Origin: Escherichia coli
GTDB taxonomy: Bacteria; Pseudomonadota; Gammaproteobacteria; Enterobacterales; Enterobacteriaceae
Assembly (NCBI RefSeq): GCF_024502345.1
Contig: NZ_JALDNN010000001.1
Length of the DNA: 64,000 nucleotides
Reading direction: 5' to 3' (one strand)
The notes beneath the pieces are model-generated. The model made no database searches and was not told the origin of the DNA. It saw only the letters and a program-made list of their open reading frames with translations. A program made the position numbers and the translations under genes. Positions 45,061 through 51,617 of this stretch are shown piece after piece. The first letter of the stretch is position 1. Every line of letters starts with the position of its first letter.

Positions 45061-46788
45061 ATGGAAAAAAAGAATCAATGGAATACCGGCTACTGGATCG
45101 TTGCCCTCCTGCTGTTGTTGAGTTTGCAGAGCTACTGGCAGACGGCGAAAACCGTCGAGCCGGTGCCCTACAGCGAGTTCGAGAAGGCGCTGGCCGAGGG
45201 GCGCGTGGCCGAAGTGCTGGTGTCGGATCGTACGGTGACCGGGCGCCTGAAGTCGCCGGACAGCCGGGGCAAGACGACGATCGTGGCAACGAGGGTCGAA
45301 CCCGATCTTGCCGATCGCCTGTCGAAGTACGACGTGCCCTATGCCCGCGTGTTGGAGAGCACCTGGCTGCGCGATGTGCTGTCGTGGATCCTGCCAGCGG
45401 TAGCCTTCTTTGGCGTCTGGTTCTTCCTGTTCCGCCGCTTCGCCGAGAAGCAGGGCATGGGCGGGTTTCTCAACATCGGTAAGAGCCGCGCCAAGGTGTT
45501 CGTGGAAAAGAACACCGGTGTGACGTTCGCCGATGTCGCGGGGGGGGATGAGGCCAAGGCGGAGCTGGTCGAGATCGTCGATTTCCTGAAGAATCCGCAG
45601 GACTATGGCCGTCTCGGGGCGCGCATTCCCAAGGGCGTGTTGCTGGTCGGCCCACCGGGCACCGGCAAGACATTGCTGGCCAAGGCTGTTGTCGGCGAGG
45701 CGGCGGTGCCCTTCTTCTCCATCTCCGGATCAGAGTTTGTCGAGATGTTCGTCGGCGTGGGTGCGGGCCGCACGCGCGGCGTCGGCGGCCACGACGAGAG
45801 CGAGCAGACCCTCAACCAACTGCTCACGGAGATGGACGGCTTCGACAGCTCGGTCGGGCTGATCATCCTCGCCGCCACCAACCGCCCCGAAATCCTCGAC
45901 CAGGCTCTGCTGCGTGCCGGCCGCTTCGACCGCCAGGTGCTGGTGGACCGGCCCGACAAGAAGGGGCGGCTGGACATCCTGAAGGTTCATGTCAAGAAGG
46001 TGACGCTGGCCCAGGATGTAGACCTCGAACAGGTAGCAGCACTGACCACGGGCTTTTCCGGCGCGGACCTCGCCAATAGGGTCAACAAGGCGGCGCTGGC
46101 GGCGAGGAGACGCCGTGCGTCCGCCGTGGAATTGCAGGACTTCACCGCGACCATCGAGCGCATCGTGGCGGGCCTGGAAAAGAAGAGCCGCGTGCTCAAT
46201 CCCAAGGAGCGGGAAACCGTGGCCCATCACGAGATGGGCCATGCGCTGGTGGCGCTGGCGCTGCCCGAAACCGACCCCGTACACAAGATCTCGATCATCC
46301 CGCGCGGCATCGGCGCGCTGGGCTACACCTTGCAGCGCCCCACCGAAGACCGCTTCCTGATGACGCGTACCGATCTCGAGCACAAGATCGCCGTACTGCT
46401 GGGCGGGCGTGCCGCCGAAAAGCTGGTGTTCGGCGAGTTGTCTACCGGGGCGGCGGACGATCTGGCGCGAGCCACCGACATCGCCCGCGACATGATCACC
46501 CGCTTTGGCATGGACGAGGGCCTGGGCTACATCGCCTTCGAGGCGCAGCGGCCCCGCTTTCTCGATACACCGGAACTGGCCCACGGCGGTTGCCGGGTGG
46601 CCGAATCGACCCAGGCGCGCATCGATCAGGCTATCCGCGACATCGTGATGGGCGTGTTCGAGCGCGCCTACCGGATTCTCGACATCTACCGCGCGGTGCT
46701 GGAGCGCTGCGCGCGCGAGCTGCTGGCGCGGGAAGCGCTCGACGAAAGCGATATCCGTCAATTGACTCAAGGACTTGTTCGGAACTGA
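45061..46788 (+). CDS. ftsH: FtsH-like membrane AAA+ zinc metalloprotease with the Walker B segment missing
   Basis: 575 aa. It has two N-terminal TM segments, Walker A GPPGTGKT, the second region of homology [22 protein letters not shown], and the zinc motif HEMGHAL. Between FVGVGA and GGHDE there are only 7 residues (GRTRGVG). Confidence 0.85.
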
Positions 46789-49962: not shown

Positions 49963-50041
49963 GAGCGTGCCAAACCAAAATCTATGGATATGAGCATCCT
50001 CGATTCATGCCTCCATAGAAATGACATCGAAGGAGTCATAC

Positions 50042-51187
50042 ATGCAGATACAATATAGCTATCGAGCTATCGACAAAGAGTTTCATGAACCTTGGCAGAG
50101 AGCTTTGGGAAATGTGATCGAGCACGCCCTCAAGCCATTGCTCGACAAACACACTAAAGATTCAGCGCGACTTCAAATCGTCCTTGATCGCGACAAGATC
50201 AAGCGGCAATTTCTGGCCAGTGGCTATATGCACCTGCCCGGCAAAAAGATTGTCAGCGTTACTGCATCACATGACGAGCTGACGCCCCTCGCGCAGATGC
50301 TCGCACAGTCGTTGTTCCGTCAGGCCAAGAAGCATTTTGACCGACTGCATGCTCAGGATCAAATCAAGCGCAAAGCACGACGCGAGCGCTTGCGCGAGCT
50401 CAAGGTGCGGATTGCCGCAAAACCCGCATCAGCCGCCCATGAGGCCGAGGTGACCCGAATGCCTCTACTGTCGAAACTTGAGGCTGTCGCAAGGCGTGAG
50501 CTGGCTTATCTGCGGGCCGTCGGCGATTTACCGCGCGATTATCCGACGCTGCGCGACGTGGTGGATGAAGCGATTGTCCGAGCTAAGGTGGAATGGCAAT
50601 CCGTGCCGGGGGAAAAAGAGGCTTACACCGGTCTTTTGAAGCATCTGTTCGCCGTCCTGGATAACGAAGTGGCAAGCAGCCGGCAATTTGGCGAATTCGT
50701 TTCTCTGGACGCGCCGGTCGAACCGGATGCCCAAGACGTGGCCGAGGCCATGGTGGAAGAGGAAATCTTCGAATTTTATCAGCACGATGACACACTCAAG
50801 CTGGCCGATATTTTCGCTGGCAGTCAGCATCCCGATGTCGCAACGATCGCGGAACAGGAGGAGCTGATTGATCGGTCGAGCGAGTTCGCTTTTGCATTTG
50901 ACCTGCTGAAGGACATGCCGCGTTTGTGGCGGCGCATTTTTCTGCTTATCCGTGTGGACGGGCTGAATGCCAGCAGCGTCTCTGAAATCCTGCTGATTCC
51001 TAGTAAGGAAGATGCTGTCCAAAGGTGGCTCATGCAGGCCGAAGCATTCATCGCTGCTCATCTGGAAGAGGCCGGAGTAAGCAAAAACGGGAACGATTGG
51101 CTCCAAGGCGTTGATTGGCCGGCATTGTCTGTGACCCGAAGCGAGGCAGCCTCACTGTGGTCCAAGGAGGCGAACCATGAAGAATGA
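50042..51187 (+). CDS. uncharacterised LHR orf11, with an HPF-like N-terminal region and a sigma-70-like C-terminal region (by eye)
   Basis: The ATG at 50042 follows aaggag. It is 381 aa and its stop overlaps the trx start. See the findings for the domain argument. Confidence 0.6.
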   Translation: MQIQYSYRAIDKEFHEPWQRALGNVIEHALKPLLDKHTKDSARLQIVLDRDKIKRQFLASGYMHLPGKKIVSVTASHDELTPLAQMLAQSLFRQAKKHFDRLHAQDQIKRKARRERLRELKVRIAAKPASAAHEAEVTRMPLLSKLEAVARRELAYLRAVGDLPRDYPTLRDVVDEAIVRAKVEWQSVPGEKEAYTGLLKHLFAVLDNEVASSRQFGEFVSLDAPVEPDAQDVAEAMVEEEIFEFYQHDDTLKLADIFAGSQHPDVATIAEQEELIDRSSEFAFAFDLLKDMPRLWRRIFLLIRVDGLNASSVSEILLIPSKEDAVQRWLMQAEAFIAAHLEEAGVSKNGNDWLQGVDWPALSVTRSEAASLWSKEANHEE

Positions 51188-51617
51188 TCTTCACCTCGTC
51201 TGCCCGCATTGCCAGTCCATCAACCGCGTACCGACTGCGAAGCTATCGGAACATCCCAACTGTGGCCGCTGCCAGCAGCCCTTGTTCACGGGCGAGCCCA
51301 TCGAGTTGACCACGGCGACGTTCTCGCGCCACGTGGAGCGCAGCGATCTGCCGCTGCTGGTCGATTTCTGGGCGCCATGGTGCGGGCCGTGCAAGATGAT
51401 GGCGCCACAGTTCCAGCAAGCGGCGCACCAGCTCGAACCGACGATCCGGCTGGCGAAGGTGAATACCGAGGCTGAGCCCCACCTGGCCGCGCAGTTCGGT
51501 ATCCGCAGCATCCCGACGCTCGCCCTGTTCCAGGGTGGGCGGGAGATCGCCCGTCAGGCCGGCGTGATGGGCGCGCAGGACATCGTGCGCTGGACGTCGA
51601 CGCAAGTGGGACGCTGA
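51177..51617 (+). CDS. trx: thioredoxin 2-like protein (N-terminal zinc-finger CxxC pairs plus WCGPC)
   Basis: The protein reads MKNDLHLVCPHCQSINRVPTAKLSEHPNCGRCQQPLF...FWAPWCGPCKMMAP (146 aa). Confidence 0.9.
   Translation: MKNDLHLVCPHCQSINRVPTAKLSEHPNCGRCQQPLFTGEPIELTTATFSRHVERSDLPLLVDFWAPWCGPCKMMAPQFQQAAHQLEPTIRLAKVNTEAEPHLAAQFGIRSIPTLALFQGGREIARQAGVMGAQDIVRWTSTQVGR

Follow-up and report, generated by a model that had tools for sequence, protein, structure and literature searches.

Orf11 of the heat-resistance island tLST: a predicted pairing of a RaiA/HPF-type fold with a module derived from an ECF sigma factor

The HPF/RaiA domain is that of the ribosome hibernation factors RaiA (YfiA/pY) and short HPF (PF02482); in long HPF, mycobacterial RafH, plastid PSRP1 and archaeal HibA (HPF plus CBS) it is N-terminal and followed by a linker and a second module. 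The ECF (group 4) sigma factors, such as E. coli RpoE, P. aeruginosa AlgU and EcfG, have a sigma2-linker-sigma4 layout without sigma3. In PhyR, of the alphaproteobacterial general stress response, a sigma2/sigma4-like module with a degraded DNA-binding capacity is joined to a regulatory domain, the receiver domain. At the level of gene order, Balon genes are most often found beside RaiA and share their operons with those for Hsp20, HdeD and "alternative sigma70 factors" (Helena-Bueno et al. 2024; PMC10901736), and baeRF-1 and HPF are operonically associated (Burroughs and Aravind 2019; PMC6514570). In these two papers RaiA and the alternative sigma70 factors are neighbours, not a fused or coupled unit.

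The window, which is the whole stretch of Escherichia coli DNA that was analysed (64,000 nucleotides of contig NZ_JALDNN010000001.1), contains orf11 of the locus of heat resistance (tLST). The gene is located between hdeD-GI and trx-GI, which is the place of orf11 in the tLST/LHR, and the tLST copies of E. coli have the same flanking genes and are 99.7% identical to it at the DNA level. The features are as follows.

49963..50041, plus strand: hdeD-GI/orf11 intergenic gap of 79 bp, with the orf11 Shine-Dalgarno sequence (from reading the sequence)
50042..51187, plus strand: orf11 coding sequence, 381 aa plus stop (from ORF calling and the identity to tLST copies)
50042..50356, plus strand: predicted HPF/RaiA-type (S30AE) domain with beta-alpha-beta-beta-beta-alpha topology, aa 1-105
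50357..50416, plus strand: predicted basic helix that prolongs HPF helix 2, aa 106-125, QDQIKRKARRERLRELKVRI, conserved (from AF2, conservation and charge)
50426..50683, plus strand: predicted ECF-type sigma2-like domain, aa 129-214, with the motifs RRELAYLRAxGDLPxDYP, DVVDEA and LLxxLFxxIDxE..R
50690..50878, plus strand: sigma2-sigma4 linker, aa 217-279 (from AF2 pLDDT, conservation and charge)
50879..51076, plus strand: predicted ECF-type sigma4-like helix-turn-helix domain, aa 280-345, with invariant LPxxWRR
51077..51184, plus strand: C-terminal tail, aa 346-381, poorly conserved, present in the tLST clade only, with low pLDDT and a dN/dS of about 0.83
51177..51617, plus strand: trx-GI, a Trx2-type thioredoxin with an N-terminal Zn ribbon (Pfam Thioredoxin and Zn_ribbon_Thio2)

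The orf11 ATG at position 50042 is preceded by an AAGGAG Shine-Dalgarno sequence at 50030-50035, and the homologs have their start at the same residue. The full-length reading frame is intact in 131 of the 169 matching E. coli records. The first-pass annotation had given the protein as hypothetical only, and this is indeed its label both in RefSeq and in a protein cluster of 5909 members. At the 3' end, the stop codon (51185-51187) and the trx ATG (51177) overlap by 11 nt, and the Shine-Dalgarno sequence of trx sits within orf11, as seen from the junction sequence. This confirms the overlap that had been pointed out earlier, but not the accompanying proposal that orf11 heads the distal operon, because no sigma70-like promoter and no terminator is recognised in the 79-bp gap between hdeD-GI and orf11. 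A scan for sigma32 sites 5' of the E. coli gene finds no site either, the best match being 8/14.

Direct searches of Pfam, NCBIfam and the PDB with E. coli Orf11 give sub-threshold matches only, and profiles of the homologs are required for detecting its relatives. For the N-terminal part, Pfam S30AE (PF02482) does not match E. coli Orf11 itself, its similarity to RaiA and short HPF being too low for detection in this way, and the Orf11 query alone reaches an HPF chain with E=0.38 only. The family profile matches E. coli HPF with E=3.3e-6, and Pfam Ribosomal_S30AE is matched at E<=0.01 by 25 of the 50 family members, several of them above the gathering score of 23.7; full-length homologs with 35-52% identity score 37.3 (P0056), 30.2 (P0030), 29.1 (P0064) and 34 (L096) bits. 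This is also in agreement with the AlphaFold model (pLDDT 77.8), in which the secondary structure elements are beta 2-8, alpha 12-37, beta 43-51, beta 56-65, beta 69-77 and a helix from residue 80, so that the HPF/RaiA topology proposed by eye for residues 1-105 is borne out by model and profile alike. When compared with RaiA and short HPF, helix 2 runs on as a conserved, Arg-rich helix of 20 residues, one continuous helix spanning residues 80-125 in the model, and the HPF part is fused or coupled to a sigma-like module of roughly 220 aa. The basic extension (residues 106-125) has a mean conservation of 0.69, a net charge of about +6 and an invariant arginine, R110; in the split homologs that are discussed below, the HPF-like gene stops exactly past this helix. 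The long-HPF C-terminal dimerisation domain (Ribosom_S30AE_C) gives no Pfam match in Orf11 or its homologs. These comparisons identify residues 1-125 (module 1) as a fold of the RaiA/HPF type, predicted to be 30S-binding and prolonged by a conserved Arg-rich helix.

The remainder of the protein is best compared with ECF sigma factors. The family profile matches E. coli RpoE with E=2.7e-15; it is colinear with RpoE residues 31-89 over the sigma2 part, at 15.9 bits, and scores 42 bits against RpoE sigma4. Pfam Sigma70_r2 is detected in 0 of the 50 family members. Sigma70_r4_2 is found in Orf11 alone with E=0.022 (14.8 bits, below the gathering score of 25.7) and in 29 of the 50 homologs, being above the threshold in some of these (P0046, 30.7; P0034, 27.8). 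These data agree with the resemblances to sigma region 2 in the centre and to ECF region 4 in the C-terminal part that had been noticed from the letters. ECF sigmas can be aligned structurally with Orf11 over 135-149 residues (Bartonella RpoE superposes over 149/163), and the modelled sigma2/sigma4 arrangement is most similar to ECF structures with bound anti-sigma (5uxx_C, 5wuq_A and 4cxf_A). As in the ECF sigmas of group 4, the layout is sigma2, linker and sigma4, without sigma3, with the region 2.1/2.2-like motif DVVDEA and a region 4 helix-turn-helix. Module 2 (residues 126-345), with its sigma2, strongly acidic linker and sigma4, can thus be assigned, at the level of sequence, as derived from an ECF sigma factor.

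There are also clear differences from ECF sigmas. The linker, which is long and acidic, is better conserved than any other part of the protein (mean conservation 0.72, net charge about -13 for residues 217-279); its core, residues 229-258 (DAxDxAEAMVEEExYEFYQPDDxLxLADV), is very acidic and highly conserved, and the motif is also common to the split and the HPF-less relatives. The AF2 pLDDT of below 50 indicates that the linker is probably disordered. The recognition helix (residues 322-340) is neutral to acidic, with a charge of -1 (-4 to +1 in the family) compared with +3 in RpoE, and somewhat more basic in the soil clade. The conservation of this helix (0.53) and of the L3 loop (0.38) is such that the DNA-reading surfaces of ECF sigmas are the least conserved parts of Orf11, the best-conserved ones being the linker and the basic helix. 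Orf11 thus lacks a conserved, basic helix in region 4.2 for recognition of the -35 element, and its loop for -10 specificity is not conserved. The net charge is +11 for the HPF half and -24 for the sigma half.

The combination of the two modules recurs throughout the family, which comprises roughly 130 clusters at 50% identity. The Proteobacteria/tLST family has the modules in fused form, as does part of the soil clade (L096 and L104 are of this form), and in other soil lineages they are encoded by two genes, the HPF-like stop and the sigma-like start overlapping as ATGA. This two-gene form, with an HPF-like reading frame (Pfam S30AE, 31-34 bits) directly 5' of the sigma-like one, is seen in L099, L109, L110, L115, L116, L131, L138, L139 and L141. 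Only L085 and the L155-L166 relatives have no HPF partner. Relatives of 220-290 aa, considered initially as stand-alone sigma-like proteins, are mostly the downstream half of split pairs or N-terminally truncated calls of fusions. Conservation of the pairing extends from Proteobacteria to Actinobacteria and Chloroflexota. The dN/dS values of the two modules, 0.20 and 0.27 at 70% amino acid identity, are in agreement with purifying selection on both. As Rosetta-stone evidence, this shows the HPF-like and sigma-like modules to be, as judged from their sequences, one evolutionary unit. Like long HPF, RafH, PSRP1 and HibA, Orf11 has an N-terminal HPF/RaiA domain, a linker and a second module, but unlike in those fusions the second module is sigma-factor-derived.

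The neighbourhoods are those of stress islands. The recurrent neighbours of the unit are Trx2, PsiE, sHSP/ClpK/FtsH/DnaJ and Balon-type hibernation factors; trx is directly 3' of the sigma-like gene in 36 of 38 tLST-like, 23 of 52 soil-clade and 4 of 41 divergent loci. A baeRF family 10 gene, whose product matches mycobacterial Balon with E=2e-4, adjoins the unit in L001, L005, L054, L056 and L059, and lies at a greater distance on the 3' side in L096 and in other soil loci. Homologs of orf11, whether fused or split, are found next to baeRF family 10/Balon-like genes, Hsp20, HdeD, Trx and PsiE, as in the Balon-RaiA operons and the baeRF-1/HPF association, although the E. coli tLST, unlike these operons, has no Balon gene. 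Sigma32-type promoters are present 5' in 8 of 29 loci (shuffle mean 0.4), and six soil loci have sigma54-type TGGCAT-N5-TTGCT promoters; homologs that head a transcription unit are behind promoters of these two types and not of the ECF type. An exact 5+5 dyad enumeration for an ECF-type promoter in 185 island intergenic regions gives nothing above shuffles, with a method that is insensitive, since it also misses the sigma32 motif. A defence-system or phage origin of orf11 was considered and set aside, the context being consistently that of a heat-shock/stress island. These neighbourhoods show that the HPF-sigma unit belongs to stress islands. The neighbourhood tables contain no annotated sigma or anti-sigma gene near orf11 homologs; the coupled HPF-like and Trx genes are no more than candidates for an anti-sigma role.

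In E. coli the gene is dispensable for resistance to heat and to chlorine. According to published work, deletion of orf11 leaves both unchanged, whereas deletion of kefB reduces chlorine resistance (PMC8407380), and these phenotypes speak against an essential role of Orf11 as an activator. In tLST2/LHR2 a 2.7-kb insertion interrupts the sigma2 part of orf11, and the island with this disrupted gene still confers heat resistance (PMC5383660). The dN/dS of orf11 is 0.26 at 70% identity; among close tLST copies it is 0.4-0.6, and there the constraint is only moderate. In E. coli orf11 is an accessory gene, and the RaiA, HPF and RMF of the host may mask its role.

The best explanation overall, in which confidence is evenly balanced, is a bipartite Orf11 with a ribosome-docking module 1 and a partner or regulatory module 2, most likely a ribosome factor of the RaiA type that is induced by stress and has a partner module derived from a sigma factor. 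By analogy with RaiA, it is fairly probable that the decoding region of the idle 30S or 70S is the docking site of module 1, which would protect or silence ribosomes in heat or oxidative stress; the evidence for this binding is indirect, namely the basic surface of the HPF half (net +11) and the adjacency to Balon. More tentatively, the acidic sigma-derived module would act as the protein-interaction or regulatory partner, either by masking the basic module until stress or by engaging the RNA polymerase core via its retained sigma2/sigma4 surfaces. The same module pairing recurs in several phyla, either within a single gene or split over a pair of genes that overlap, and so may connect idle ribosomes with the polymerase; Orf11 may thus couple RNA polymerase to the state of the ribosome. 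Counting against this explanation are the deletion without a reported phenotype in E. coli and the dN/dS among close tLST copies. A further version of it, which is doubtful, is a ribosome-sensing switch, in which the HPF-like module is an anti-sigma-type domain. In the unstressed cell the basic helix would keep the acidic sigma-like module in a closed state; a collapse of translation would expose vacant decoding centres and let the HPF-like module dock on the 30S, and the sigma-derived module, released or tethered at the ribosome, would engage the RNA polymerase core. Such a protein switch, fused or in two genes and carried by a mobile stress island, could possibly be redox-tuned by the coupled Trx2.

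The regulator model of the first-pass annotation, taken here to mean that Orf11 is a bona fide ECF-type sigma for the island promoters, including that of trx-kefB-psiE-M48-degP, with the HPF-like part as a fused anti-sigma-like regulatory domain, is considered unlikely. It agrees with the complete sigma2 and sigma4, with the match to RpoE and the extent of the structural alignments, with the conservation of the core-binding-like motif DVVDEA and of the motif LPxxWRR, with the ATGA-coupled form, which is like that of sigma/anti-sigma pairs, with the tight coupling of trx and with the similarity of the AF2 arrangement to anti-sigma-bound ECF structures. However, the recognition helix is neutral or acidic and variable, no segment is less conserved than the L3 specificity loop, Pfam Sigma70_r2 is silent and the sigma half is strongly negative. 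Unlike for ECF sigmas, no known anti-sigma gene is seen nearby, and neither an autoregulated nor a shared promoter of the ECF type emerges from the (insensitive) search, the homologs being behind sigma32-/sigma54-type promoters. The orf11 deletion does not resemble the kefB deletion, and sigma2 is interrupted in a functional tLST2. With no recognisable promoter directly 5' of the E. coli gene either, the idea of a regulator driving trx-kefB-psiE-M48-degP is not sustained, and Orf11 probably does not act as a promoter-specific sigma for these genes. Some lineages at least may nevertheless have genuine sigma activity, considering the complete ECF-like layout and the more basic helix of the soil clade.

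It is also rather improbable that hibernation or the protection of ribosomes is all that Orf11 serves, with a sigma part that has lost every function in transcription and is only structural or used for oligomerisation, like the C-terminal dimerisation domain of long HPF or the CBS module of archaeal HibA. The long-HPF C-terminal domain is absent, and the strongest constraint is seen in the helices of sigma2, in LPxxWRR and in the acidic linker, which are kept even in the HPF-less L085 and L155-L166; such constraint without the HPF domain points to an independent, specific binding function.

A much less probable alternative is that the sigma-like module mimics a sigma factor in the manner of PhyR (as an anti-anti-sigma), and receives its signal via the HPF-like module or Trx-GI, sequesters a host anti-sigma and frees a host ECF sigma. 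As in PhyR, a sigma2/sigma4-like module with degraded DNA-binding capacity is joined to a putative regulatory domain in a stress-related setting, and Pfam PhyR_sigma-like matches many Orf11 family members, in the region-4-like part only. However, the partner has the HPF fold and there is no receiver domain, the NepR/EcfG partners of PhyR are absent among the annotated neighbours, which include no conserved anti-sigma or sigma gene, the family is spread well outside Alphaproteobacteria, and genuine ECF sigmas match better than PhyR (2.7e-15 compared with 2.5e-6). Because the island moves between classes and phyla, such a mimic would require a universally conserved partner. That orf11 of the E. 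coli tLST1 is a decaying passenger without current function is highly improbable: the deletion without a phenotype, the disruption in tLST2 and the dN/dS values of the close copies and of the tail are as expected for a passenger, but the reading frame is intact in most E. coli records and in a cluster of 5909 sequences, both modules are constrained at 70% identity and the architecture is conserved across phyla.

In the literature searched, nothing relevant was found on an HPF-sigma fusion or on a characterised orf11, and Orf11 is not named in the proteome paper. The obligatory pairing of HPF/RaiA with a sigma-derived module is undescribed in that literature, and it is a new domain architecture made from known parts. 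New here are the two modules as a unit, the recurrent stress neighbours and the sigma32- and sigma54-type promoters 5' of it. In tLST, a heat- and chlorine-resistance island of clinical and industrial importance, orf11 was the sole core gene without a name, and it now has a testable identity. Should the sigma-like half bind RNA polymerase, the family would physically connect ribosome hibernation with transcription; if it does not, this would be the second case, after PhyR, of a sigma factor recycled as a protein-interaction module. Either way, the family is defined, together with the [HPF-sigma]-Trx2-PsiE(-Balon) cassette, in which the unit is often found beside Balon.

The heat-resistance locus (LHR, or tLST) contains orf11, for which the coordinates of the first-pass annotation hold:

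50042-51187, + strand: orf11, an open reading frame of 381 aa

An AAGGAG stands at 50030-50035, ahead of the ATG, which corresponds to the residue at which the homologs start. The gene, a 'hypothetical protein', lies between hdeD-GI and trx-GI, and kefB-GI comes after trx-GI. The overlap that had been described with trx is also present: the orf11 stop codon (51185-51187) lies 11 nt inside trx-GI (ATG 51177), and the trx Shine-Dalgarno sequence, AAGGAGG, is located inside orf11. It is unproven that orf11 heads the distal operon, as had been proposed, because no promoter or terminator was found between hdeD and orf11 (79 bp) in the E. coli island, and the known tLST promoter is upstream of orf1 (review, PMC8290217). 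The RefSeq product name is still 'hypothetical protein' (WP_001166995.1), as it is for every named member of its cluster of 5909 sequences, and a 2021 review puts its identity to proteins of known function below 30% (PMC8290217). In this island copy, ftsH-GI is degenerate (45061-46788), with an ORF of only 575 aa and long overlapping alternative frames; the equivalent gene of E. coli C is frameshifted according to RefSeq. A metagenomic gene call of 545 aa (P0001), 100% identical over orf11 and with a DUF308 Pfam match, has HdeD-GI and Orf11 in a single product, probably either an artefact of gene calling or a variant without the stop codon.

When E. coli Orf11 is searched alone, the matches are sub-threshold (Pfam Sigma70_r4_2, E=0.022, aa 288-334; a sigma-factor NCBIfam, E=0.016; an HPF chain among the PDB sequences, E=0.38, aa 44-103), and they are located exactly at the positions where an HPF-like fold and an ECF-sigma-like module had been predicted. 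A word-indexed search gave 80 relatives, and among the full-length ones (35-52% identity) Pfam gathering scores are passed in both halves: N-terminally for Ribosomal_S30AE (gathering score 23.7 bits; P0056 37.3, P0030 30.2, P0064 29.1, P0077 27.8), and C-terminally for Sigma70_r4_2 (25.7 bits; P0046 30.7, P0034 27.8) and PhyR_sigma-like (27 bits; P0077 29.1). At E<=0.01, Sigma70_r4_2 matches 29/50 members of the family alignment, S30AE 25/50, PhyR_sigma-like 23/50 and the Pfam Sigma70_r2 model 0/50. The whole-family profile finds AlgU (8e-6), RpoE (5e-5) and HPF (1.6e-4) among the PDB sequences; the HPF-module profile finds E. coli HPF (3.3e-6) and RaiA (3.6e-3), and the sigma-module profile finds E. 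coli RpoE (2.7e-15) in two colinear stretches, a sigma2 stretch (profile 30-85 with RpoE 31-89, 15.9 bits) and a sigma4 stretch (42 bits), with isolated sigma2 domains at ~0.01. In the AlphaFold2 model built on the family alignment (pLDDT 77.8, pTM 0.64), the N-terminal part is predicted as β 2-8, α 12-37, β 43-51, 56-65 and 69-77 and a single long helix 80-125; it is followed by helices 129-160, 170-184 and 191-214, a disordered stretch 217-264, and helices 266-289, 294-305, 310-316 and 324-343. The top Foldseek structures are HPF/RaiA (TM 0.75-0.83, probability 1.0), and the fold searches agree with a three-part reading of the model. Together, the profile, Pfam-homolog and fold-search results establish that the HPF fold, sigma region 2 and sigma region 4 are all real, as the first-pass annotation had suggested. 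Orf11 is thus bipartite, HPF-like and ECF-sigma-derived, and by predicted structure and family profile it is an HPF/RaiA-fold protein. Unlike members of the ECF sigma family, it falls below the Pfam r2/r4_2 thresholds and its recognition helix is neither basic nor conserved, and it is therefore not filed as an ECF sigma.

An exhaustive profile search gives 131 clusters (50% identity) at E<=1e-30 and 465 at E<=1e-10, mostly 330-390 aa long and covering both modules. Shorter relatives of 220-290 aa seeded a metagenome scan that gave 80 soil loci. Reading them as stand-alone sigma-like proteins was rejected, as most have an HPF-like ORF directly upstream or are N-terminally truncated calls of fusions. 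In the full fusions (16 ORFs) the HPF domain is more canonical (L096 and L104, S30AE 34 bits). In 29 sigma-like ORFs there is an upstream in-frame stop, and for most of these an HPF-like ORF of 116-135 aa (S30AE 31 bits) lies immediately upstream, ending right after the basic helix, with its TGA overlapping the sigma-like ATG as ATGA; a few relatives (L085, L155-L166) have no HPF partner. By this comparison, the two modules meet at Orf11 residue ~125. In evolution they behave as a single unit, fused in some lineages and translationally coupled neighbours in others, which is a classic sign of modules that work together, most likely, judging from these gene arrangements, by physical contact.

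In the species-representative genome scan, near-identical tLST copies occur in Enterobacteriaceae, Acinetobacter, Pseudomonas, Burkholderiales and Xanthomonadales, and homologs at 30-49% identity in Alpha-, Beta- and Gammaproteobacteria, Gaiellaceae (Actinobacteria) and Chloroflexota. The neighbours are reshuffled (sHSP20, ClpK/ClpG, FtsH, YfdX, HdeD (DUF308), Trx2-type thioredoxin, KefB, PsiE, M48 protease, DegP, cardiolipin synthase, DnaJ with a MerR-type regulator), and orf11 is therefore not specifically tied to the slot upstream of trx-kefB; Trx is directly downstream in 36/38 tLST-like, 23/52 soil and 4/41 divergent loci. The tLST order orf11-trx-...-psiE echoes the soil operon L096, [HPF-sigma]-Trx2-glutaredoxin-like-PsiE-Balon-like. 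There, the conserved cassette downstream of HPF-sigma (L096:8845-11273) encodes Trx2 with a Zn ribbon, the glutaredoxin-like protein, PsiE and a baeRF family 10 (Balon-like) protein, the last two ORFs overlapping by ~60 nt. A baeRF family 10 gene directly adjoins the homolog in Tibeticola, Gaiellaceae, Chloroflexota and two other loci, and its product resembles Balon, a hibernation factor of mycobacteria (8v9j_z, E=2e-4). This fits published associations: raiA is the most frequent neighbour of Balon genes, and Hsp20, HdeD and 'alternative sigma70 factors' are also found with them (PMC10901736), and HPF is persistently operonic with baeRF-1 families (PMC6514570). A DUF1451 gene is a recurrent neighbour, directly downstream of the homolog in two gammaproteobacterial loci (L004:5784-6290, L084:9085-9567) and followed by DegP or by DnaJ with a MerR-type regulator.

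Homologs that head a transcription unit have host stress promoters: sigma32-type CTTGAAA-N13-14-CCCCATNT in 8/29 loci at >=11/14 matches (shuffle mean 0.4, maximum 3), and sigma54-type TGGCAT-N5-TTGCT in six soil loci. The latter, as (C)TGGCAT-N5-TTGCT, precedes the HPF(-sigma) start by ~90-130 nt (L096, L097, L100, L109, L110, L113), and in several soil-clade loci is followed by an imperfect palindrome, ACGTCATGAGGCA...TGCGTCAT, which may serve as a leader element or bind an enhancer-binding protein. Another motif, GCGCCGAGAC...GCGTCAAAGACTCTA(A/G)G, ~30-60 nt before the start codon in L104, L105, L111 and L135, could be a leader RNA or operator. A weak search for an ECF-like dyad common to the island intergenic regions found none. 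The HPF-sigma unit is part of stress islands and stress regulons, in association with Trx2, PsiE and Balon.

The invariant residues of the family alignment are R110, E153, L157, L163, P168, D175, D249, D256, P293, W296, R297 and R298. The best-conserved segments include the loop GDLPxDYP (0.79), the core of the acidic linker, which is predicted to be disordered (DAxDxAEAMVEEExYEFYQPDDxLxLADV; 0.72, net charge ~-13), the Arg-rich stretch that prolongs HPF helix 2 (YKRKARRERLRELK; 0.69, charge ~+6), the sigma2 helices (0.64-0.66) and LPxxWRR. Conservation is lowest in the segments with which true ECF sigmas read DNA, namely the L3 loop (0.38) and the region 4.2 recognition helix (0.53), whose net charge is -1 in Orf11 and -4 to +1 in the family, versus +3 in RpoE. 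In this helix (residues 322-340), the Orf11 of the window has DAVQRWLMQ (51005-51007), one basic residue fewer than the DAVRRWLMQ of many tLST copies. The protein is strongly dipolar (HPF half ~+11, sigma half ~-24).

We propose that the basic HPF-like module would probably bind idle ribosomes, by analogy with RaiA. The acidic sigma-derived module is a putative partner or regulatory domain, which would either mask the basic module or engage the RNAP core, possibly through the retained sigma2/sigma4 surfaces and the sigma-finger-like acidic linker; RNAP binding is suggested only tentatively. That Orf11 is a promoter-specific sigma for the distal tLST genes is possible, given its sigma regions, but disfavoured: the DNA-reading segments are the least conserved, the recognition helix is not basic, and homologs lie behind sigma32- and sigma54-type promoters. 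Moreover, deletion of orf11 from E. coli MG1655 lacZ::LHR leaves heat resistance, chlorine resistance and membrane-lipid oxidation unchanged, whereas deletion of kefB, two genes downstream, lowers chlorine resistance (PMC8407380). Under those conditions, kefB function thus does not require Orf11, and current evidence does not support the regulatory role over trx-kefB-psiE-M48-degP proposed earlier. These assays were run on overnight cultures (PMC8407380), in which host RaiA, HPF and RMF are presumably abundant, so that a redundant ribosome-protecting role of Orf11 would be masked.

In tLST2 (LHR2), two inserted ORFs interrupt orf11 (PMC5383660), as confirmed in the tLST2-type island of Thauera aminoaromatica S2 (L047:8001-11817), which matches the LHR2 description (Boll et al. 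2017). There, residues 1-195 and 186-348 are 2.7 kb apart, the break is at residue ~190 in the sigma2 L3 loop, the junction carries a duplication of ~10 residues (186-195), and the HPF module is 99% identical despite the sigma2 break. A purely structural C-terminal domain is slightly less likely still than a promoter-specific sigma. PhyR-like mimicry by the sigma-like module is very improbable, and a decaying passenger gene is the least credible reading; in comparison with a homolog of 70% identity, dN/dS is 0.26 overall, with 0.20 for the HPF half, 0.27 for the sigma half and 0.83 for the C-terminal tail, and among closer tLST copies it is 0.4-0.6.

The S30AE/HPF and ECF sigma parts are known; their combination is new. 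No description of an HPF-sigma fusion was found in the literature searched, and the pairing is hinted at only by JGI automatic names ('RaiA / sigma24 family protein') and by a figure legend with RaiA and alternative sigma factors near Balon (PMC10901736). The HPF-sigma combination is real and well supported, a new domain architecture and a new family of gene pairs.
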